This document shows positions 4,036 to 49,324 of a stretch of 64,000 nt of DNA, in pieces (the first letter of the stretch is position 1; each line of letters begins with the position of its first letter). Source of the DNA: a virus. A model generated the notes under the pieces. The model made no database searches, was not told the DNA's origin, and was given only the letters and a program-made list of their open reading frames with translations. Both the position numbers and the translations under genes were made by a program. The stretch covers positions 64,001-128,000 of IMG/VR virus record IMGVR_UViG_3300008259_004660; one strand, given 5' to 3'.

Positions 4036-5028
4036 ATGTCTGAACCAATTGATTTCATCAAAACAAACTTCGAATACAACAATCAATCATTGTATAATCG
4101 ACTTTCAACATGCAGTTTCAGAACATTACTCCTTAATGGAATATGGAGAACGATGAAATCAAACGGCGAACCAGAATATGTCTTGATTGAAGATATGGCA
4201 CCAGATCATATAGCTCGTTCTATCAAAAAAGCAAAAGCAGACAACAACTCTCTTATCATTGATATTCTTGCAAGTGAAGTTGAAAGAAGAAGCAAAAGAG
4301 GAGAAATGGCACTTTCCAAGTTAAACAATAGCAATAACAAAAACACAGAAAAAAACACAATGAGTACAAGCACAAGTAACAACATAGAAACAAACCAACA
4401 CGTTTTCAGATATGCCCTGAATGATGTTTTGCGAGTGGCGGGTAAAGACAACAAAGTACGCGATGTAATCGTTACATTTAGACAGGAAGCCTTGGCTGAA
4501 AATGGATATCGCGCTGCATATAGATACAAGGTAAAGGGAAGCAATGGAGATAACAGTGCATTGTACTCTCAGCGAGATATGATTGAAATGGAAAATCGTG
4601 CTGTTAAATTGGAAAAACGCCGTAGCAAAAAGGCGAGCAAAACAAAGACACAGCGTGATGTATCACAGAAGTTTGAAGTAAATAAGACGTATGGTAGATA
4701 TACCATTGTAAATCACGATGCTGTTATGCGATTTGGAAAGAGAAAAGACGGAACCCTCACGGTTTCAAACTCTGTCACCGGTCACAGATATGATGTTACT
4801 GTTGATGGAGGAAAGACGGTTGTTACATTCACTCAAACAGAACTATCCAAGGCAATTGAAAGAGAAGCAAAAGCAATTGATACAACAAATGCTATTGTGC
4901 AAAGCGAACTTGATTTCAATTCATCCGAAAATTCGCAACTTCGTGCAGAGAATAATGAATTAAAGAGAATGATTGCTGAAATTCACGAAAAGCTTAATAT
5001 GCGAGCGGCCACAACAACTATTCAATAA
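4036..5028 (+). CDS. hypothetical protein with C-terminal coiled coil (start may be ATG 4360)
   Basis: 330-aa ORF; TTGACA at about 3975 upstream. Confidence 0.65.
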   Translation: MSEPIDFIKTNFEYNNQSLYNRLSTCSFRTLLLNGIWRTMKSNGEPEYVLIEDMAPDHIARSIKKAKADNNSLIIDILASEVERRSKRGEMALSKLNNSNNKNTEKNTMSTSTSNNIETNQHVFRYALNDVLRVAGKDNKVRDVIVTFRQEALAENGYRAAYRYKVKGSNGDNSALYSQRDMIEMENRAVKLEKRRSKKASKTKTQRDVSQKFEVNKTYGRYTIVNHDAVMRFGKRKDGTLTVSNSVTGHRYDVTVDGGKTVVTFTQTELSKAIEREAKAIDTTNAIVQSELDFNSSENSQLRAENNELKRMIAEIHEKLNMRAATTTIQ

Positions 5029-12464: not shown

Positions 12465-12701
12465 ATGAAAAACGAACTCGCAATCAAGCTCGTCGCTGCT
12501 GCCGACAAGTATCGTGCAGTTGAGCGTAACTATGAGGGTGCTGCTGAAGTGGTCCAATCAGATTACGAAGACCTCATCAGCATTGCTGGTATGATTGAAA
12601 ACAACGAGAGTAAGAAATCCATATCCAATGCTATGTGGAATCTTGACACTCTTGTGCGCGATGTTATTCCTGATAAAGTTTATAACGCTTACAACCGATG
12701 A
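12465..12701 (+). CDS. hypothetical protein
   Basis: Own promoter; 78 aa. Confidence 0.65.
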   Translation: MKNELAIKLVAAADKYRAVERNYEGAAEVVQSDYEDLISIAGMIENNESKKSISNAMWNLDTLVRDVIPDKVYNAYNR

Positions 12702-12862
12702 AAACATACACGGCTGAAGTTACTGTTCGTCTCAAGATCAACGCGAACAGTGAAGACGATGCGCGTTATGCGCTTCAAGAAATGGATTATTCGTTTGACT
12801 TTATTCAAGACCGCGCCGAAATTACTAGCTCCGAAATCACCGATCAACTCATCAAGGACTAA
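12698..12862 (+). CDS. hypothetical small protein (54 aa, not in track)
   Basis: ATGA overlap; MKTYTAEVTVRLKINANSEDDARY. Confidence 0.6.
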   Translation: MKTYTAEVTVRLKINANSEDDARYALQEMDYSFDFIQDRAEITSSEITDQLIKD

Positions 12863-12864
12863 CA

Positions 12865-13269
12865 ATGGCTAACTATTACGAACAGGCTCGCACCAATTAT
12901 TTCAACGTCAAGGACGCTGCTGCATTCCAAAAGTTTATTGAGACATTCAGAGGTATTGATCTTGTTGTTCAAGAGCAGACTGGACAGTATGCTCTGCTTT
13001 TTGACGAGACTGGCATTCCTTGTTCTATCTACGACGAGGAGACTGATGACCACATTGATGTTGATTTTCCTTACGAAGTTTCACAACATCTGACCGATGA
13101 CAGCATTGCTGTTTTCGAAGCGATTGGTAGTGAAAAGATGCGCTATCTTTGCGGCTATGCCATTGCGGTCAATAGCAAGGGAGAGCGTGAGGACATTAAC
13201 ATCTCTGAAATCTATGCACGCGCCAAGGAAAAGTTTGGCGTGAAAGAAATTGGCGAGGCGAGTTATTGA
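12865..13269 (+). CDS. hypothetical phage protein
   Basis: MANYYEQARTNYFNVKD; EKMRYLCGYA. Confidence 0.7.
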   Translation: MANYYEQARTNYFNVKDAAAFQKFIETFRGIDLVVQEQTGQYALLFDETGIPCSIYDEETDDHIDVDFPYEVSQHLTDDSIAVFEAIGSEKMRYLCGYAIAVNSKGEREDINISEIYARAKEKFGVKEIGEASY

Positions 13270-14821: not shown

Positions 14822-14896
14822 GGCAGGGTAGAGTATGCGGTAACTCGTCACGCTCATAATGTGAAGCAACGGATTCAAACGCCGTCCCTGCTCCCA
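14822..14896 (+). tRNA. degenerate initiator-like tRNA (CAT)
   Basis: Acceptor GGCAGGG/CCCTGCT, D stem GAGT/ACTC, loop CTCATAA, T loop TTCAAAC, encoded CCA; A.G mismatch in T stem. Confidence 0.7.
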
Positions 14897-14938
14897 ATTT
14901 TGTATGTGTCCTGCGACGGGGCATACAAGAAAAAAAGA

Positions 14939-14971
14939 AAAGACCACGCTCCCGAAGGCGTGGTCTTTTTT
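14939..14971 (+). terminator. intrinsic terminator
   Basis: AAAGACCACGC/GCGTGGTCTTT stem plus T tract. Confidence 0.85.
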
Positions 14972-15010
14972 CTTGACTTTTTTAAAAAAAGTCTCCAAGA
15001 TGTTCGCACG

Positions 15011-15157
15011 ATGAAACCCTGCGTCAAGGTTGGAAACAAACTCATTCCACGCAAAAACGTGGAGTTTATTGATATTGAAGAGTGTCCTCTTACTGGCAGA
15101 GATATCATCACGTTTGAATACAAAGGCAATATTCACAAGTCTTATCTCTTTATCTAA
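15011..15157 (+). CDS. hypothetical small protein
   Basis: Leaderless cassette ATG 15011; MKPCVKVGNKLIPRKNV. Confidence 0.6.
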   Translation: MKPCVKVGNKLIPRKNVEFIDIEECPLTGRDIITFEYKGNIHKSYLFI

Positions 15158-15158
15158 A

Positions 15159-15497
15159 ATGAACATCGACTCTATTAGCATCAATGAGTATGATCTGCCC
15201 ATGATCATTCGCAACAATGTGCGAATTGATTGGGTCAATCTTGGTGAAGGAAATGATGGGGATTATGACCCAACTGACAAGTATGATGAAAACCTTCTTC
15301 GTTTTGATGTTTATCGCTTCGACGGCAAGGAGTGGGAAGCTATTGAAGATGGTAGCTATTGCACTCAAGTAGCTGCTGGTACAGACCAAAAGATTTTGAT
15401 TGAACATCTTCGTCACTTTATGGACACCATCTATGACGATGTTTCCACACACGGCAAAGCAAAGCGACTCTGCGAACAGCTTTCTTGGATTGAATAA
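15159..15497 (+). CDS. hypothetical phage protein
   Basis: GEGNDGDYDP..LLRFDVY..SYCT motif. Confidence 0.7.
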   Translation: MNIDSISINEYDLPMIIRNNVRIDWVNLGEGNDGDYDPTDKYDENLLRFDVYRFDGKEWEAIEDGSYCTQVAAGTDQKILIEHLRHFMDTIYDDVSTHGKAKRLCEQLSWIE

Positions 15498-15537
15498 TTC
15501 TTGACTTTTTATAAAATTAATGTAGGATGGTCGCACG

Positions 15538-16257
15538 ATGAACGAACTACTCCTCGCCAAACTCAAGAAGCTCCTCAATCTCAGCAAGTCCGCCAACATT
15601 CACGAGGCGGAGCTTGCTCTCCAAAAGGCTACGGCAATGGCGGCAGAAGCTGGTATCGACCTTGCGATGGTAACTGCCAAGGCTGACAGCGAGGCTGAGA
15701 AGCTGGAAATGGTGCAGGAGACTGCCTTCAATGGCAAGCGTCTGCCTAGCCTTCAGAAGTATGCCTCTTGGCTCCTAAACAAGCATTTCAATGTCCACGT
15801 GATTTATTCTGGCGGGCGCTACTTTGGTCGCAGCGTCAACATTCTCGGAGACAAGCGTGATGTCGAGTTTGCCAAGTTCGTCAACGAGTTTGTGCAGGAT
15901 GATATGCAGCGCCGTTGGGAGTATTACAAGAAGAGCAACGGTTTGAGCGTGCGCATGAAAGACACTTTCATGTACAACCTTTGGCGTGGGTTGGACAGCA
16001 AGCTGACCGAAGCCAAGGCGGCGGCGGAAACTGCCAAGTTCAACGCTATGCCGCAGGAGCAGGTGGCGGACACCAAAGCTCGTTATGGCATCGTGATTTC
16101 GGACAAGAAGGCGGCGGTGCAGCAGTTCGTCAGCAAGACTTATCCCCGCTTGTCAAGCACAAGAATTTCGGTTCGCAACTTTTCTAACTCGACAGTTGCG
16201 ACGGATGGGTATTCAGTTGGGCGTTCAATGAACATCAGCCGCCCAATCGCATGCTAA
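15538..16257 (+). CDS. DUF2786-domain protein
   Basis: KLKKLLNLSKSANIHEAELALQKA N-terminus. Confidence 0.75.
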   Translation: MNELLLAKLKKLLNLSKSANIHEAELALQKATAMAAEAGIDLAMVTAKADSEAEKLEMVQETAFNGKRLPSLQKYASWLLNKHFNVHVIYSGGRYFGRSVNILGDKRDVEFAKFVNEFVQDDMQRRWEYYKKSNGLSVRMKDTFMYNLWRGLDSKLTEAKAAAETAKFNAMPQEQVADTKARYGIVISDKKAAVQQFVSKTYPRLSSTRISVRNFSNSTVATDGYSVGRSMNISRPIAC

Positions 16258-16736
16258 CCTATCGCCAAAATATCACCCACTACCCACAGTTGGGAGCATA
16301 CAACTGTGGGCCTGTGGCCCTTTCCTGCCTCTTTGACACCTCGTTGGAGCAACTGGAGAAAATGGTGGAATGCGACAAAGACAAGGGCACGTACACCACC
16401 AAGGTGGTTGACGCAATGAAGCGTGAGAAAATTGAGTGCAGCCATATCTCCCTTAATGGTGACGGTGAAAACCATCTGTGGTGGTTGGAGCTTAACTCCT
16501 ACCGTTGGCCCATCTACCTTGGTTGTCACTTCATCGTGCAGGGCAAGCGTGGTCGCCCCAGCAACCACCATCACGCTGTGCTGCTCGCGAATGGTATGAT
16601 CTATGATGGCAACAGCCATCGTGAGGAGCCAATCGGTGCTGTCGCAGAGAAGTTCAACAAGAAGTTTGTTGTGAAAGATGCAATCATCTTCCATCATGAA
16701 TTGAAGGGTTGGAAACAAAATTTGGAAGCCGCATAA
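16251..16736 (+). CDS. papain-fold (C39-like) cysteine peptidase
   Basis: Q..YNCGPVAL, HHAVLL, IYD give a Cys-His-Asp triad. Confidence 0.65.
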   Translation: MLTYRQNITHYPQLGAYNCGPVALSCLFDTSLEQLEKMVECDKDKGTYTTKVVDAMKREKIECSHISLNGDGENHLWWLELNSYRWPIYLGCHFIVQGKRGRPSNHHHAVLLANGMIYDGNSHREEPIGAVAEKFNKKFVVKDAIIFHHELKGWKQNLEAA

Positions 16737-16813
16737 CTTTTTTCACGAAAAATTAAATTTTTTGTTGACTTTGTTTGGAAATAAAATATTTATCGGTGAT
16801 CCCTTTTTCTCCG

Positions 16814-16936
16814 ATGAAGCTCATAATTTCCAGTGGTAAAATTTTAAAGGTCAATCACCCAAATCTTCCTATACCAGCCCCCACGCAATTACCCGCGCCA
16901 AGATTGGTCACAGAAAAAAAAGTGAAAAAGCCTTGA
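16814..16936 (+). CDS. 40-aa Pro/Lys-rich peptide behind a TATTTAT motif
   Basis: MKLIISSGKILKVNHPNLPIPAPTQLPAPRLVTEKKVKKP*; stop lies in the next -35 box. Confidence 0.35.
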   Translation: MKLIISSGKILKVNHPNLPIPAPTQLPAPRLVTEKKVKKP

Positions 16937-16968
16937 CATTTTTTATTTTTTAATCATCCTAATTAGCA

Positions 16969-17142
16969 ATGAACACTTACAAAGTACCTGTTACTTGGAG
17001 AGAGTATGGTCATGTCTTTGTCAAGGCAGACAGTATTGAAGAAGCTATTCAAAAAGCCCACGATGAAGATTTGCCCCACGACAACAGCGAATATCTTGAA
17101 GGTAGTTTTGAAATTGATTACGAGGGCGTTCGCGCAATCTAA
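16969..17142 (+). CDS. hypothetical small protein (57 aa, not in track)
   Basis: MNTYKVPVTWREYGHVFVKADSIEEAIQKA. Confidence 0.65.
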   Translation: MNTYKVPVTWREYGHVFVKADSIEEAIQKAHDEDLPHDNSEYLEGSFEIDYEGVRAI

Positions 17143-17148
17143 CCATAC

Positions 17149-17225
17149 GCGACCGTAGCTCAGTTGGATAGAGCAACAGATTTCTAATCTGTGGGTCGTG
17201 GGTTCGAATCCCACCGGTCGCGCCA
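17149..17225 (+). tRNA. tRNA-Arg(TCT)
   Basis: GCGACCG/CGGTCGC acceptor, loop TTTCTAA, GTTCGAATC, CCA. Confidence 0.97.
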
Positions 17226-17278
17226 TTCTAAAAATAATTCTTGACTTTTTATAAAAATCTGTCAACCTAATCAGCACT

Positions 17279-17746
17279 ATGGGACTAGATATGTATCTCA
17301 GCGCCGAGAAGTATATCTCGGGTTATGACCACGACAAGAATGAGAACTTCGGCAAAGTTCTTGATCTTTTTAATCTAAACGAGGATGATGTTCACAATTC
17401 TATCACGGTCAACATCACCGTTGGTTATTGGCGCAAGGCCAATGCCATTCATAATTGGTTCGTTCAAAATATACAGGATGGTAGGGATGATTGCCAACGC
17501 AGCTATGTTCGCCGCGAAAAACTACTTGAGTTGAAGAGTGAGTGTGAAGCTGCTCTTGCTGCCTACAACAATGGTGACAAGGATACGGCGGAAAACCTAA
17601 TTCCTCCTACTAGTGGATTTTTCTTTGGAAGCACCGAAGTTGATGATTGGTACAAGGCCGATTTGGTTGAAACCATCAAAATCATTAACACGTGTTTGAG
17701 TGATAAGTTAAATGGATTTGGATTTTACTACCAATCCAGTTGGTAA
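17279..17746 (+). CDS. hypothetical phage protein
   Basis: MGLDMYL, YWRKANAIHNWF, GFFFGST, YQSSW. Confidence 0.8.
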   Translation: MGLDMYLSAEKYISGYDHDKNENFGKVLDLFNLNEDDVHNSITVNITVGYWRKANAIHNWFVQNIQDGRDDCQRSYVRREKLLELKSECEAALAAYNNGDKDTAENLIPPTSGFFFGSTEVDDWYKADLVETIKIINTCLSDKLNGFGFYYQSSW

Positions 17747-17785
17747 TACTTGACTTTTCTTAAAAAGTATCCACACTTCTACTCA

Positions 17786-18103
17786 ATGAACGCTACGAAC
17801 ATCGAACCTCAAACCTGCCACTACATCACTGCCAACACGTTGGCAAAGATGAGCAAGAATGCTGCCGAGGCTATTGATGCCTTGTTCAACTCTGATTTGG
17901 ATGTTAGCTTTGGCGATGCTAATCGCACTCTGATCGACATCCCTCATTTCCTACGCCTATTGGAGGATGGTATGGAGCAGCAGGGTATTTTTTGGGTTCC
18001 TCTTGGCCCCGATGATGACGAGACGCACCACGCTGGTTACGAGGAAATCAAGAACGCGCTTGACGAATACACTAACGAAGTTTACATTGATCTCGAAAAC
18101 TGA
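17786..18103 (+). CDS. hypothetical protein (IDLEN family)
   Basis: SFGDANRTLI..EVYIDLEN. Confidence 0.7.
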   Translation: MNATNIEPQTCHYITANTLAKMSKNAAEAIDALFNSDLDVSFGDANRTLIDIPHFLRLLEDGMEQQGIFWVPLGPDDDETHHAGYEEIKNALDEYTNEVYIDLEN

Positions 18104-18115
18104 AATAACACCACG

Positions 18116-18307
18116 ATGAAACTGACGCAATACATCCGCCAACTCCAAGAAATCGCCAAGAAGCAGCCTGACGCAGAAGTGATTTATGCGGCAGACGAAG
18201 AAGGTAATAGTTATTCTCCTGTTTTTTACGAGCCGTCTCTTGGTTATTTTGATGGAGACAGTTTTGACACCACGGCGAAGCCTGTCAACGCCATCTGTAT
18301 CAACTAA
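18116..18307 (+). CDS. hypothetical phage protein
   Basis: EVIYAADEEGNSYSPV, NAICIN. Confidence 0.7.
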   Translation: MKLTQYIRQLQEIAKKQPDAEVIYAADEEGNSYSPVFYEPSLGYFDGDSFDTTAKPVNAICIN

Positions 18308-18316
18308 TTTTAGCTC

Positions 18317-18392
18317 GGGCTGGTAGCTCAACGGTCAGAGCAGAGGACTCATAATCCTTTGGTTAGGGGTTCGAATCCCTTCCGGCCCACCA
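18317..18392 (+). tRNA. tRNA with CAT anticodon (Ile2-like or elongator Met)
   Basis: GGGCTGG/CCGGCCC acceptor with C4-G69, loop CTCATAA, CCA. Confidence 0.93.
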
Positions 18393-18402
18393 CTTTTATC
18401 AT

Positions 18403-18588
18403 ATGAAAACAATAATCAACAAAATAAAGGAGAACTCCACACAACTTATTCAAGGACTGTTTCTTGGTCTTTTTCTAACAATGGGTATTTTCAACATCGT
18501 TGATGGCATTTTCTTTTCAAAGATTATGTGGCAGACGAACTGCGGAGTTAATCAGATCATCATCGGTGCAATCATGTCCAAGATTTAG
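18403..18588 (+). CDS. small two-TM membrane protein
   Basis: Two hydrophobic segments in 61 aa. Confidence 0.55.
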   Translation: MKTIINKIKENSTQLIQGLFLGLFLTMGIFNIVDGIFFSKIMWQTNCGVNQIIIGAIMSKI

Positions 18589-18638
18589 TTCTTGACTTTT
18601 TATAAAGAACAAGTACTCTGTGTCTTGTTCTTTTCAAT

Positions 18639-18713
18639 GGTCTTGTAGCTCAATGGTAGAGCCGTTGACTTTTAATCAATTGGTTGTGGGTTCGAATCCC
18701 ACCGGGACCACCA
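18639..18713 (+). tRNA. tRNA-Lys(TTT)
   Basis: GGTCTTG/CGGGACC, GTTGA-CTTTTAA-TCAAT, CCA. Confidence 0.97.
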
Positions 18714-18718
18714 ATTTC

Positions 18719-18793
18719 GCGATGAACCCAAAGACAAGGAGGGGGTGGGCTCGGTTCCCACAATAGTGCGTGAAAGCTCGCACCATCGCACAA
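18719..18793 (+). ncRNA. tRNA-like cloverleaf RNA with non-canonical loops
   Basis: GCGATG/CATCGC acceptor, GTGGG/CCCAC and GTGCG/CGCAC arms, ACAA end. Confidence 0.55.
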
Positions 18794-18846
18794 TTTTTAT
18801 TGACAATTTAGGTAGGTAAGTCATAGTTATCTTTGTTCTTTTTAAT

Positions 18847-18921
18847 GCCGAGTTAGCACAATGGCGGTGCAACTGTTTTGTAAACAGTAGGTTGTCGGTT
18901 CGAATCCGACACTCGGCTCCA
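18847..18921 (+). tRNA. tRNA-Thr(TGT)
   Basis: GCCGAGT/ACTCGGC, ACTGT-TTTGTAA-ACAGT, CCA. Confidence 0.96.
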
Positions 18922-18930
18922 TTTTTCAGA

Positions 18931-19019
18931 CAGAGGTGCAAGTAAGTCGTCTACATCCTCTGGAGTACTGCATAAGGTGCTTGACAGCAGTAAATAACAG
19001 GGCTCATGATCCTGCCTCT
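18931..19019 (+). ncRNA. three-hairpin structured spacer RNA
   Basis: CAGAGG/CCTCTG, TACTGC/GCAGTA, CAGG/CCTG. Confidence 0.4.
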
Positions 19020-19038
19020 TTATCTGAACATTTTTTAC

Positions 19039-19113
19039 GCCGCTATCGTCTAACGGTTAGGACGCCGGATTTTCATTCCGATAATCGGGGTTCGATTCCC
19101 CGTAGCGGTACCA
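19039..19113 (+). tRNA. tRNA-Glu(TTC)
   Basis: GCCGCTA/TAGCGGT, loop TTTTCAT, GTTCGATTC, CCA. Confidence 0.95.
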
Positions 19114-19118
19114 ATTTT

Positions 19119-19313
19119 ATGAACGATTCTCATTTACTTCCTCCTCAAGCAGACATTGACGCTGCACTTCAGATTGAAAAGAGTGTGAAGCCAAGTGAGC
19201 GTGAGCGTTATTTGGAGTACATGAACAATGTTCCTATGTCTGACCGCAAGACCGCAAGAGAATTGCGTGATGGATGTATCTTGAGCCAACTTTTCAATCG
19301 TTTTCGCAGTTAA
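19119..19313 (+). CDS. hypothetical protein
   Basis: ATG 19119, MNDSHLLPPQ; 64 aa. Confidence 0.55.
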   Translation: MNDSHLLPPQADIDAALQIEKSVKPSERERYLEYMNNVPMSDRKTARELRDGCILSQLFNRFRS

Positions 19314-19357
19314 AGTTCTTGACTTTTTTTAAAATCTGTTCATTCTATCTCTTGTCA

Positions 19358-19539
19358 ATGAGGTTTGGAAGCCGTCAACTGCCTCATCATTAAATTCAGG
19401 TATTGCTGAATGGCGCGGCCCAATTTTTGTTCTTTGTGGCCACAAAAACCGGTGTCAGGGAGCCCACAGGGTTATCCCTTATTGTGGGGAACGCTAGTCC
19501 CACGGCTCCACGGGGAGTCTCCGGAAATCTAGCGCGCCA
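19358..19539 (+). ncRNA. candidate structured ncRNA ending in GCCA
   Basis: Own promoter at 19317; TGGCGCG/CGCGCCA, GGAGC/GCTCC, CCCACA/TGTGGG. Confidence 0.55.
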
Positions 19540-19589
19540 ATTTTCTCTTGACTTTTTTTAAAATCTGTTCATTCTCTTCTTTGTTCTTT

Positions 19590-19814
19590 GGTAGTATCAA
19601 GACAGATAAAAGTCGCCTTGCGCGATGGAATCAAAGTTGAACAGTGATGTGTTCAATGAAAGGGTTTGGATTTATCACCAAATACCTGAGATTTAACCGA
19701 CCAGCGCCACCATTAAAAGCAAAGCCACACGGCATTGATTCGTCGGAAAGAGCAGCTTGAAAGTGTGAAACTCTTGCGGAACAGCAGAATTCCGCTATCT
19801 GTCTTGATATTATC
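19590..19814 (+). ncRNA. candidate ~225-nt multibranch ncRNA
   Basis: 14-bp perfect (19 with G-U) terminal helix; several internal hairpins; own promoter and boxA. Confidence 0.7.
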
Positions 19815-19853
19815 ATTGACTTTCTTTAATTTTTGTTCATTCTCTTCTTTGTT

Positions 19854-19981
19854 CTAGGGTGCATTGCCAATAGGAAGTACTCACGGAACTACAGTAAGCA
19901 ACAGTTAGTGCGGAACTCGTGACGAAGATTCTGATCAAATCCTAGTTAGCGTGATTATGGATCGGCTCCATCGCTGTTGCT
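19854..19981 (+). ncRNA. candidate pseudoknotted ncRNA
   Basis: CTAGG/CCTAG, TCACG/CGTGA, and crossing AGCAACAG/CTGTTGCT. Confidence 0.55.
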
Positions 19982-20005
19982 GAAATCTTTTTTGTTCTTT
20001 TGATT

Positions 20006-20167
20006 TTCTCTCATTATTCCGCAACATTGTAAAAGGTGAAGCGCGTGTATCGAAAAATGTAATGGGAGAATATTTTTTGGCAGGTCGCTCTGCCGGAACT
20101 CTAAAATCTATGCCAAGCGCTAGTGACCCTTGCCGGTATCACACAGGTTGACCTCTGGATTTTAGAG
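20006..20167 (+). ncRNA. two tandem long-stem, large-loop hairpin RNAs
   Basis: 11-bp and 12-bp stems, each ending in GAGAATATTTT. Confidence 0.45.
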
Positions 20168-20178
20168 AATATTTTTAC

Positions 20179-20260
20179 GCAGTGTTGGTGTAGCTGTGCA
20201 ATAAACATAGTTGGCAATCCTGCCAAAAGTCGGGCAGCGCGTCCTGCTCACACTGCTCCA
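20179..20260 (+). ncRNA. anticodon-less tRNA mimic with encoded CCA
   Basis: GCAGTGT/ACACTGC-T-CCA acceptor plus three arms. Confidence 0.7.
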
Positions 20261-20305
20261 ATTTATCTTGACTTTTTTTAATTCTTCAACGACACTATCA
20301 GCAAG

Positions 20306-20470
20306 ATGAAACTTGAATGCTGCGATGTTGAGTTAGATTATGAGAGTGCTGGACGGCGTGACACCGAGACGATTGGTGGATACAGCGTCGAGTATTTTAT
20401 CTGTTCTGAATGCAAGCAGCGTTATGAACTTATCGGAAATAGTTTGTGTATGACTGAAGAAGAGCCTTGA
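20306..20470 (+). CDS. 54-aa Cys-rich (Zn-ribbon-like) protein, not in track
   Basis: MKLECCD...FICSECKQRY; promoter 38 nt upstream. Confidence 0.6.
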   Translation: MKLECCDVELDYESAGRRDTETIGGYSVEYFICSECKQRYELIGNSLCMTEEEP

Positions 20471-20503
20471 CTTTCTTTAAATTTAGTTCAAACTGACTTC
20501 ACG

Positions 20504-47464: not shown

Positions 47465-49324
47465 ATGACTAAATCAAATGACATTGTTATTGGTATTGAC
47501 CTTGGCACGACGAATTCGTGCGTGGCTGTATGGCAAGCGGGTGAAGCTACAGTAATTACCAACTCGGAAGGTGCTCGTACTACCCCTTCGGTTGTTGCTT
47601 TTACAAAAAGCGGGGAAAGACTTGTTGGTCAAGCTGCTAAGAGACAGGCGGTGACCAATCCAAAGAATACAATTTTTTCGGCCAAGAGACTTATTGGTCG
47701 CAAGTTCAACGAAGTGCAGGAAGAAATCAAGAATCTTCCATACAAGGTCGTTGAAGGTCCAAATGGAGATGCTTGGATCGAAGTAACAGAGAACGGAGAA
47801 GCTAAGAAATATTCTCCTCAACAGATTGGCGCATTTGTTCTTGGAAAGATCAAAACCGATGCCGAATCATATTTGGGACAATCTGTGAAGAAGGCGGTTA
47901 TCACAGTACCTGCGTATTTTAATGATTCTCAACGTCAAGCTACCAAGGATGCTGGCACTATTGCCGGTTTGGAAGTTCTGCGTATTATCAACGAACCTAC
48001 CGCAGCATCCTTAGCCTATGGTCTAGACAAGAAGAAAGACGAGAAAATTGCCGTCTTTGACCTTGGCGGTGGTACGTTTGACGTTACCGTTCTCGAAATT
48101 GGGGACGGTGTATTTGAAGTTAAAGCCACCAATGGTGATACGCATCTTGGTGGTGATGATTGGGACAGAGCAATCATGGACCACATGGTTGCGGAATTCA
48201 AAAAAGAAAATGGTATTGACTTGTCCAAAGATAATATGGCTTTACAGCGTCTACGCGAAGAAGCCGAAAAAACCAAGATTGCTTTGTCTTCTGCAACATC
48301 ATATGATGTAAATCTCCCGTTTATCACGGCGGATGCATCTGGCCCAAAGCATTTGAATATGACAATTTCTCGTTCAAAAATGGAACAAATCTGCGAGAAG
48401 TTGTTTGAAAGAATGGATGCTCCATATAAGAACTGTTTGAAGGATGCTGGTGTATCAAATAGTGAACTCAATGAGCTTGTGCTTGTTGGTGGCATGACAA
48501 GAATGCCAAAGGTTGTTGATTATGCCAAGAAGTTCGGTGGTAAAGTTCCAAATCAAGGTGTAAATCCAGATGAAGTTGTGGCAGTCGGTGCCGCTGTACA
48601 AGGTGGTGTATTGAAGGGTGAGGTCAACGACGTATTGTTGCTTGACGTTACTCCGCTGACCCTTGCGATTGAAACCGCAGGAAATGTTGCGACGGCAATG
48701 ATTCCTCGTAACACAACAATTCCTGCTAAGAAGTCACAAGTGTTCTCCACATACAGCGACAATCAGCCTTCCGTTGATATTGTTGTATTACAGGGTGAGC
48801 GCCCAATGAGCAAAGACAATAAGCGTCTTGGAAACTTCAAACTGGACGGCATTCCGCCAGCACCAAGAGGCACTCCTCAAATTGAAGTGACGTTTGACAT
48901 TGACGTAAACGGCATTCTTCATGTCTCTGCAAAAGATCTTGGAACGGGCAAAGCTCAAGATATCACCATTCAAGGTTCATCTGGTCTTTCAAAGGAAGAA
49001 GTTGAAAGAATGAAGCAAGAAGCTGAAGCAAATGCTGATAAAGACAAAGAACTCAAGGAAAATCTTGAGACCAAGAATTCTCTTGACAATATTATCTATG
49101 GTTGGGAAAAACAACTAAAGGATGGTAACTTTGAAGATTCTGTCAAAACCGAAATTCAAAAAGGTATTGACAAAGGCAAAGAAGTGTTACAGAGTGGTGA
49201 TGTTGGAAAAATGAAAGATACTATCTCTGAACTTAGCAAACTCGGAGAACTTGTTTATAAGAACAAGTCTAATGGTGGGAAAGGAACTCCAGAAGATCCA
49301 ATCGAACCAGAAGTAGTAAGCTAA
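47465..49324 (+). CDS. dnaK: Hsp70 chaperone DnaK
   Basis: [39 protein letters not shown]. Confidence 0.98.

Follow-up and report, generated by a model that had tools for sequence, protein, structure and literature searches.

A tRNA-shaped, probably non-decoding small RNA conserved in the tRNA cluster of an uncultivated phage

The closest known kind of RNA for the 82-nt RNA presented in this work is the pair of stable RNAs encoded in the tRNA cluster of phage T4, RNAC and RNAD. The roles of these molecules, also named species 1 and species 2, are still unknown (PMC3014915, PMC9697503), and the function of these two stable cluster RNAs has stayed unsolved for 50 years (PMC3014915). The 82-nt RNA resembles them in being a small non-coding RNA that lies in a T4-type tRNA cluster, on the strand of the tRNAs, and that carries fragments of tRNA anatomy; a few bases separate RNAC and RNAD from tRNAs. 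The T4 record shows a canonical T arm within rnaC and an encoded CCA at the end of rnaD. However, RNAC and RNAD are 119 and 139 nt in length and are not cloverleaves, whereas the 82-nt RNA has a 7-bp acceptor stem and a four-way junction. Our covariance model of this RNA (R2) gave no match in the T4 tRNA region (69000-74000), and thus no homology to rnaC or rnaD.

The nearest functional analogy is offered by the staphylococcal non-proteogenic tRNA-Gly NP1-3, which are paralogues of tRNA-Gly(UCC) used outside translation; they have no TTC in their T loop, bind EF-Tu and the ribosome poorly, and are charged by GlyRS (PMC7826273). The 82-nt RNA is also devoid of TTC, lacks the GG of the D loop, and has an acceptor end matching the glycine determinants as well as a UCC triplet. 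These tRNAs are nevertheless cellular, otherwise canonical cloverleaves with a normal UCC anticodon, and have Fem transferases as partners, whereas the 82-nt RNA is viral, has a loop of 4-6 nt and a rewired core, and no Fem-type enzyme was found in its record. The tRNA-like domain of tmRNA, an RNA that is processed by RNase P and charged, likewise associates an acceptor stem, a T arm and a CCA end with the absence of an anticodon. In tmRNA, however, G3-U70 serves as the alanine determinant, the T loop is canonical and the mRNA-like part exceeds 300 nt, whereas the 82-nt RNA has A-U or G-C at pair 3 and a non-canonical T-like loop. Further non-decoding tRNA-like RNAs with a CCA end, the vtRNAs of murid gammaherpesvirus 68 and mascRNA, are excised by tRNA enzymes. 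They are eukaryotic, of Pol III or lncRNA origin, and receive their CCA post-transcriptionally; vtRNAs were reported to be uncharged, and the sequences of these RNAs are unrelated to that of the 82-nt RNA. The canonical tRNAs of the phage itself share with the 82-nt RNA the same island, strand, leader and trailer, the 7-bp acceptor stem and the encoded CCA, but the latter fails the ARAGORN and Rfam models and lacks the 7-nt loop, the TΨC and GG motifs and the 2-nt linker of positions 8-9. Searching the literature for an anticodon-less tRNA mimic of phages, we came across no description of this RNA.

Conservation and structure of the 82-nt RNA

The stretch analysed here (the window) comprises 64,000 nt (64001-128000) of an IMG/VR virus record that is 184.8 kb long and has an estimated completeness of 78%. 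A baseplate wedge match marks the record as that of a myovirus, and its source is a large uncultivated freshwater phage, probably a distant relation of T4. ARAGORN detected in the window a cluster of six tRNA genes on the + strand (14822-19113), in the order Met-Arg-Met-Lys-Thr-Glu. Outside the window, ARAGORN also reported a tmRNA whose tag has 25 residues (genome 8603-8996) and three genes for tRNA-Leu (genome 754-2276). The 82-nt RNA lies downstream of the cluster, and the coordinates of its parts are given in Table 1.

Table 1. The 82-nt RNA, its parts, flanks and sequence types (positions in the window)
Feature	Position or occurrence	Strand	Basis or remark
tRNA-Glu	19039-19113	+	ARAGORN
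Nearest promoter-motif copy upstream of the 82-nt RNA	19816-19844	+	Motif family
Upstream small-RNA units (~19897-19985, 20000-20079, 20080-20170)	19897-20170	+	Homologues in L002 and/or L085
T-rich 5' leader TTTTTAC (types B and C: TTTTTAT)	20172-20178	+	Matches leader of tRNA-Glu
Whole tRNA-shaped RNA gene, 82 nt, encoded UCCA at the 3' end	20179-20260	+	Sequence and covariance-model matches
Acceptor stem, 5' strand (partner 20250-20256)	20179-20185	+	7/7 pairs in all 6 distinct sequences
Linker and D-like region, no supported fold	20186-20210	+	Pair counts, RNAalifold
Middle arm, 5 conserved pairs, loop A-(A/U)-U-C-C-(U/C/A)	20211-20226	+	Alignment; sixth A-U pair in the window type only
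Variable-region-like linker, 5 nt in the window, 4 nt in types B and C	20227-20231	+	Alignment
T-like arm, 6 bp and 6-nt loop C-G-Y-G-W-Y, without TΨC	20232-20249	+	100% paired, one compensatory pair
Acceptor 3' strand (20250-20256), discriminator U (20257), CCA (20258-20260)	20250-20260	+	U and CCA identical in all copies reaching the 3' end
Trailer ATTT abutting CCA	20261-20264	+	Also after tRNA-Lys, tRNA-Glu and T4 tRNA-Gly
Type A	Window and seven contigs		One contig copy cut at contig end; one base differs in the T-like loop
Type B	L002		
Type C	Five contigs		One copy cut at contig end

The minimum-energy fold returned by RNAfold is the cloverleaf that had been drawn in the first-pass annotation, with a folding z-score of -1.53. 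Perfect 7-bp stems followed by NCCA at a distance of 70-95 nt occur 18 times in the 185-kb genome, compared with 12.7 +/- 3.3 in shuffled sequences. In view of this z-score and of the chance rate of such acceptor/NCCA pairs, the single sequence proves nothing: taken alone, the 82-nt RNA, which is single-copy in the window according to model R2, does not rise above chance.

Its conservation does. We found 13 further copies, one in a related virus record (L002) and 12 in JGI metagenome contigs, which fall into three sequence types. The route to L002 went through a neighbouring 155-aa protein, which led to 76 IMG/VR loci; L002 is the closest of them (61% protein identity) and holds a full-length copy with 76% identity. 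The 12 contig copies came from one scan of the JGI metagenome contigs with a degenerate pattern, followed by the covariance model. The model scores were 90-108 bits for the 10 full-length copies elsewhere, and 72 and 37 bits for the two copies cut at contig ends. In every contig long enough, the 82-nt RNA lies from a few hundred nt to ~1 kb 3' of tRNA-Glu, on the same strand and behind the same Met-Arg-Met-Lys-Thr-Glu cluster, while its immediate neighbours vary between phages; since these neighbours differ and the position in the cluster stays, the RNA is an independent module.

Beyond these copies, the searches were negative. Across the 76 loci, covariance model R1 matched L002 only, besides a weak match to a true tRNA-Asp, and a broader model found no copy in 24 other related virus records. 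Megablast and blastn searches with the region against 50,697 GenBank phage records returned nothing similar; in IMG/VR, searches with an exact 21-mer and with two degenerate patterns led to the L002 contig alone. Two degenerate-pattern matches in GTDB genomes were rejected as chance (model scores of 14-17 bits) and gave no clue to the host; the neighbouring DUF7168 protein yielded no related loci. The 82-nt RNA is confined to a narrow clade.

Base pairing was counted on six distinct sequences from the three types; with only three types, the compensatory changes trace back to two or three lineage splits. Among these sequences 97.3% of cells pair, a share that falls to 24-51% upon sliding the 3' partners by 1-3 columns; at six pairs both bases change and pairing is kept, and none of 500 shuffles reached the observed paired fraction or covariation score. 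In the acceptor stem, pair 3 (A-U or G-C) and pair 5 (U-A or A-U) show compensatory changes, and pairs 1 and 4 change from G-C to a G-U wobble. Pairing in the middle arm is complete (100%); two of its pairs vary in a compensatory way (one from U-A to C-G, the other among G-C, A-U and G-U), and the U-C-C in its loop is invariant. The compensatory pair of the T-like arm changes from A-U to C-G. RNAalifold independently recovers these three helices. Moreover, a variant contig from a river metatranscriptome carries 20209 A>G and 20215 C>T, by which two pairs become G-U wobbles. The types also differ by two 1-nt indels located 20 nt apart; as these indels break the frame, a coding reading of the RNA is excluded. 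Given 13 further copies with compensatory changes in three helices, conservation places the RNA beyond chance, and we consider it highly probable that the 82-nt stretch is a real, conserved RNA gene.

The first-pass annotation, made from the window sequence alone, had described most of this architecture. The acceptor stem GCAGTGT/ACACTGC followed by T and CCA is present with seven perfect pairs and is kept in all copies, and the T-like arm (20232-20237/20244-20249, loop CGCGTC without TTC) was confirmed, with a helix that covaries. The middle arm (20211-20216/20221-20226) does have six pairs around an ATCC loop in the window, but the relatives lose the sixth pair and the conserved form has 5 bp and a 6-nt loop. 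The letters proposed for a D-like arm (20194-20198/20206-20210) are there, but as drawn this arm is not backed by the relatives: three of its pairs are invariant and one is broken in 4/6 distinct sequences, and RNAalifold prefers in this region a 4-bp hairpin joining alignment columns 11-14 with 19-22. The conservation of stems that had been predicted thus holds for the acceptor, middle and T-like helices and fails for the D-like arm. BLASTN had been named there as a way to covarying homologues; it came up empty among GenBank phages, but L002 and the metagenome contigs provided them. The agreement of the flanks TTTTTAC and ATTT with those of tRNA-Glu was verified. More generally, the idea that a tRNA-like shape is kept is borne out by the covarying acceptor/T-like stack and by the CCA, leader and trailer, which accompany the copies as they do true tRNAs.

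The linker that follows the acceptor stem has 7-8 nt, compared with 2 nt (positions 8-9) in a tRNA. Column 10 of the alignment, position 20188 of the window, is G or A and covaries, through one event only, with column 62, position 20240 of the T-like loop, which is C or U. This single event could reflect a 3-bp pseudoknot between linker and loop replacing the tRNA elbow.

Proposed transcription and maturation

About 30 copies of one promoter motif are present between 9400 and 28000 of the window, reading TTGACTTT and then a T/A-rich stretch. In the genes behind this motif, ~37 nt separate the -35 box from the ATG and a Shine-Dalgarno sequence is lacking; these are leaderless or near-leaderless early genes. 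Behind the copies at 19319, 19548 and 19816 there are stem-closed units and no ORF. Since no ORF follows it, the 19816 copy was assigned to a small-RNA transcript; it probably drives a polycistronic transcript that ends with the 82-nt RNA, the last unit before the next promoter copy (starting at 20268), and that the upstream units of Table 1 probably share. A sigma-70-like match at 20148-20175 was considered as a promoter of its own for the 82-nt RNA and rejected: it is part of the core that is conserved in the upstream unit, and its start would fall inside the acceptor stem.

In three RNA libraries, each from a different study, contigs span 20052-20267 (216 nt, identical to the window), 20081-20264 and 20079-20251. 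These contigs bridge the upstream unit and the 82-nt RNA, although they carry no 5' or 3' ends or levels and DNA carry-over is possible; as they span both units, a common precursor fits. Cover from RNA libraries is absent at 19112-19879 and 20328-20500, which is no sign of silence, the relatives present in these samples differing in these flanks. At 20079-20081 lies the start of two RNA contigs, which come from two studies; we did not draw a 5' end there since no DNA run crosses this point. Runs X2-X4 and X8-X23, in which small shares of the words of the sequence occur, were left out of the analysis.

The phage encodes an RNase Z homologue of 283 aa outside the window (genome 47721-48572; L105 1420-2271). 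Among the NCBIfam models, that of the Thermotoga maritima type (TIGR02650) matches it best, over the full length and with E 9e-37, at a score below the curated equivalog cut-off. Where pre-tRNAs have an encoded CCA, RNase Z of the T. maritima type cleaves them precisely behind it (PMC1540738). Such an enzyme would suit a phage in which all tRNAs and tRNA-like RNAs read CCA-ATTT. The upper half of a tRNA is the part read by maturation enzymes, by the CCA enzyme, by several synthetases and by EF-Tu. In the 82-nt RNA this half, made of the 7-bp acceptor stem stacked on the 6-bp T-like stem with U73 and CCA, is kept under selection; the lower half is rewired. In our scheme, the 82-nt RNA would be transcribed within the polycistronic small-RNA precursor and excised like a tRNA, with an RNase P cut before G1; host enzymes and/or the Thermotoga-type RNase Z homologue of the phage would generate its 3' end right at the encoded CCA. 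We regard such a tRNA-type maturation as reasonably likely.

With moderate confidence, we favor as the best overall explanation a small, stable, tRNA-derived RNA, cut out like a tRNA, that does not decode and acts in trans as a tRNA look-alike. The strongest competitor, which we nevertheless consider rather improbable, is a processing or stability cassette with no function in trans, where RNase P and RNase Z would be recruited to free the neighbouring small RNAs and to give them exonuclease-resistant CCA ends. Such arrangements have parallels in the tRNA punctuation of mitochondrial transcripts and in the tRNA-like handles of the murid herpesvirus tRNA-miRNA transcripts. The location of the 82-nt RNA inside a multi-unit small-RNA transcript is in line with this possibility, as are several other units of the relatives that end in CCA and a T-rich spacer, and the best-conserved parts of the RNA, the acceptor and T-like helices, are those that processing enzymes read. 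However, the middle arm, for which these enzymes have no need, is kept through two compensatory changes and has an invariant U-C-C in its loop, and the long linker is nearly invariant. Moreover, the neighbouring units possess their own closing stems and T-rich spacers, and in L002 the unit preceding the RNA has its own CCA; such neighbours should not need a handle. If the RNA were nonetheless a mere processing handle, a bacterial virus would be using tRNA punctuation to build small-RNA operons.

Decoding capacity, identity and possible role

Regarding the favored tRNA look-alike, the question arises whether it could still decode. ARAGORN made no tRNA and no tmRNA call at the 82-nt RNA; at a 65% threshold it was called 'tRNA-Ala', among about 16 spurious calls. 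Rfam gave no match to the tRNA clan (RF00005) even at E up to 10. Of the canonical features, the 7-bp acceptor stem, the discriminator and the 3' CCA are there. No copy has a 7-nt anticodon loop, the loop having 6 nt, or 4 nt if the A-U pair of the window closes, and in type A an A replaces U33 and a U replaces the purine at 37. The elbow is also lacking, with no TΨC (UUCRANY) in the T-like loop and no GG in the D-like loop. Because of the 7-8 nt linker, the missing GG/TΨC elbow and the 4- to 6-nt 'anticodon' loop, the RNA is not a normal decoder, and it is very likely non-decoding. The first-pass annotation had stated that it has no anticodon and cannot decode, and the absence of a 7-nt loop, of U33/R37 (type A), of TΨC/GG and of any ARAGORN or Rfam call agrees with this statement.

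An opposite possibility is that of a working but highly aberrant tRNA-Gly(UCC) that would read GGA for the phage, which appears very unlikely. The tRNAs of the phage serve AGA, AAA, ACA, GAA, UUA and CUA, all A-ending, and UUG, which ends in G; GGA, the commonest glycine codon of the phage (45% of its glycine codons), would fit the preference of these tRNAs for A-ending codons, and no canonical tRNA-Gly was found in the 185-kb record, which is 78% complete, so that a normal one may be elsewhere, in the remaining part. The type C loop corresponds to U33-U34-C35-C36-A37 minus one base, and the acceptor end is of the glycine type. In opposition to this, no copy has 7 nt in the loop, which is of 6 nt; in the window type, positions 33 and 37 are A and U and the loop can be reduced to a tetraloop. 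There is no T-loop/D-loop elbow, and 7-8 nt follow the acceptor stem. In addition, ARAGORN can report anticodon loops of 6 and 8 nt and yet rejects this RNA.

Glycine identity in bacteria depends on U73, G1-C72, C2-G71, C35 and C36, of which U73 together with G71 is described as peculiar to tRNA-Gly (PMC9976931). All copies of the 82-nt RNA have G1-C72 (G-U in one), C2-G71 and U73, and types B and C also have G3-C70, where the window type has A3-U70. The equivalents of C35 and C36 belong to the U-C-C that is invariant in the middle loop, and the loop of type C, A-U-U-C-C-A, is that of a tRNA-Gly(UCC) minus one base; these equivalents lie inside a loop of 6 or 4 nt, so short that a synthetase may be unable to read them. 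Here the acceptor signature is not specific to glycine, since the same set (G1-C72, C2-G71, U73) is found in all 8 distinct tRNA-Thr(UGU) of these phages. In a global alignment against 60 distinct phage tRNAs, the top scores were 55-56, compared with a shuffled maximum of ~44.6 +/- 3.2, so that they exceed shuffled sequences by a few SD. The best-scoring isotype in this alignment differs between two sequence types of the RNA, and naming an isotype ancestor by sequence similarity was rejected because the top isotypes disagree between types. From the acceptor end and the U-C-C of the loop we infer that the RNA, probably a descendant of a tRNA, is a mimic derived from tRNA-Gly(UCC) or from tRNA-Thr. 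That it is charged, most likely with glycine, is suggested only tentatively by its acceptor end.

Could this descendant of a tRNA be a decaying, functionless pseudogene, kept by recent common descent alone? We judge this extremely unlikely. The clade is narrow, canonical tRNA motifs are lacking and tRNA-derived debris is common around phage tRNA clusters; yet at ~76% identity between types, all changes in the three helices keep pairing (six double changes, plus wobbles), the CCA, the discriminator and the flanks are identical across copies, and the RNA has stayed intact while the flanking modules were reshuffled. A chance fold, a DNA-level signal or a part of a small ORF would be in keeping with the ~13 acceptor/NCCA pairs expected per genome, the MFE z-score of -1.5 and the ORFs of 32-52 aa that overlap the RNA, but has a negligible probability in the face of covariation, of frame-breaking indels among homologues and of a conserved position and strand in the tRNA cluster.

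The tRNA look-alike acting in trans is the reading that we favor. The first-pass annotation had suggested either a decoy or a non-ribosomal aminoacyl carrier. The 82-nt RNA might still be charged, with glycine as the most likely amino acid, and be kept off the ribosome. In trans, it would most likely act as decoy or sponge and occupy a host factor directed against tRNA acceptor ends or aminoacyl-tRNA; a role as an amino-acid donor would be less likely. Searches for the aminoacyl-tRNA transferases FemAB (PF02388), Acetyltransf_6 (PF13480) and LPG_synthase_C (PF09924) found none in the 78%-complete record, although an enzyme of the host might take this part; PolyA_pol/CCA enzyme, RtcB and the synthetase core tRNA-synt_2b were likewise not found in this record. 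As no phage-encoded partner was found there, a carrier run by the phage is less likely than a decoy or sponge, or than a plain processing role.

A more far-reaching and, in our opinion, unlikely version would make the 82-nt RNA the first viral 'non-proteogenic' tRNA: chargeable, most likely with glycine, abundant and off the ribosome, it would soak up immunity or toxin enzymes of the host that attack the acceptor ends of tRNAs or aminoacyl-tRNA, or feed a non-ribosomal glycyl transfer. Candidate targets could then be CapRel-type pyrophosphokinases, MenT/AbiEii nucleotidyltransferases and TacT-type acetyltransferases. For the latter, U73 and G71 are the determinants of Gly-tRNA. Were this version true, the whole island of CCA-ended small RNAs would be a battery of decoys.

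Whichever function is involved, the phages of this clade, probably distant relations of T4, maintain a whole set of such cluster RNAs, and at least the 82-nt RNA is a clean, selectable case: it has retained the top half of a tRNA and lost the decoding half. It makes the question of these RNAs testable, since it is short, its ends can be predicted clearly, and there are candidates for the synthetase and for a 3' processing enzyme encoded by the phage. Phages are known to counter defence by replacing cleaved host tRNAs; if the 82-nt RNA proved to be charged or to bind a defence protein, RNA decoys of tRNA would join this repertoire.

Other units of the small-RNA island

The island contains other units of interest. 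A unit with an 8-bp closing stem at 19898-19981 of the window was called 'tRNA-Ile(gat)' by ARAGORN at the 85% threshold. It has homologues in L002 (~12680-12775, ending in A-CCA and a T-rich spacer) and in L085, whose closing-stem sequences differ, and it is a second tRNA-derived module. Directly 3' of tRNA-Lys, a 75-nt unit (18718-18795) is closed by a stem of 6 bp and terminates with A-CAA, not CCA; it is kept in L002 (~13045-13130) and L085, with a change from G-C to A-U in the closing stem. Further, an RNA of ~227 nt at 19589-19815, with its own promoter copy at 19548 and no ORF, is closed by a 20-nt inverted repeat (90% complementary) and has no match in Rfam.

In the relatives with type C (L085 oriented 4385-4460, L099 and L080), a tRNA-like gene follows the 82-nt RNA by ~200-400 nt. 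The T arm of this gene is good, its anticodon stem is mispaired, its loop has 8 nt and no CCA is encoded; ARAGORN reported the gene as 'tRNA-?(Gly|Trp)(gcca)'. In L002, the sequence right after the 82-nt RNA copy (12880-12960) shows a canonical T arm (5 bp and TTCGAAT) enclosed by a closing stem of 6-7 bp, without CCA.

Elsewhere in the window, the phage encodes a full-length Hsp70/DnaK homologue at 47465-49324 (PF00012, E 4e-259).

Finally, the unit at 20080-20170 has a 5' hairpin with the loop GGTCGCT, and the unit at 18925-19030 contains the 10-mer GTAAGTCGTC. In T4 rnaD (L104 2054-2172), GGTCGCT and GTAAGTCGTC adjoin, the chance of finding the 10-mer in the window being ~0.1. These shared motifs hint that parts of the island might be related to T4 RNAD.
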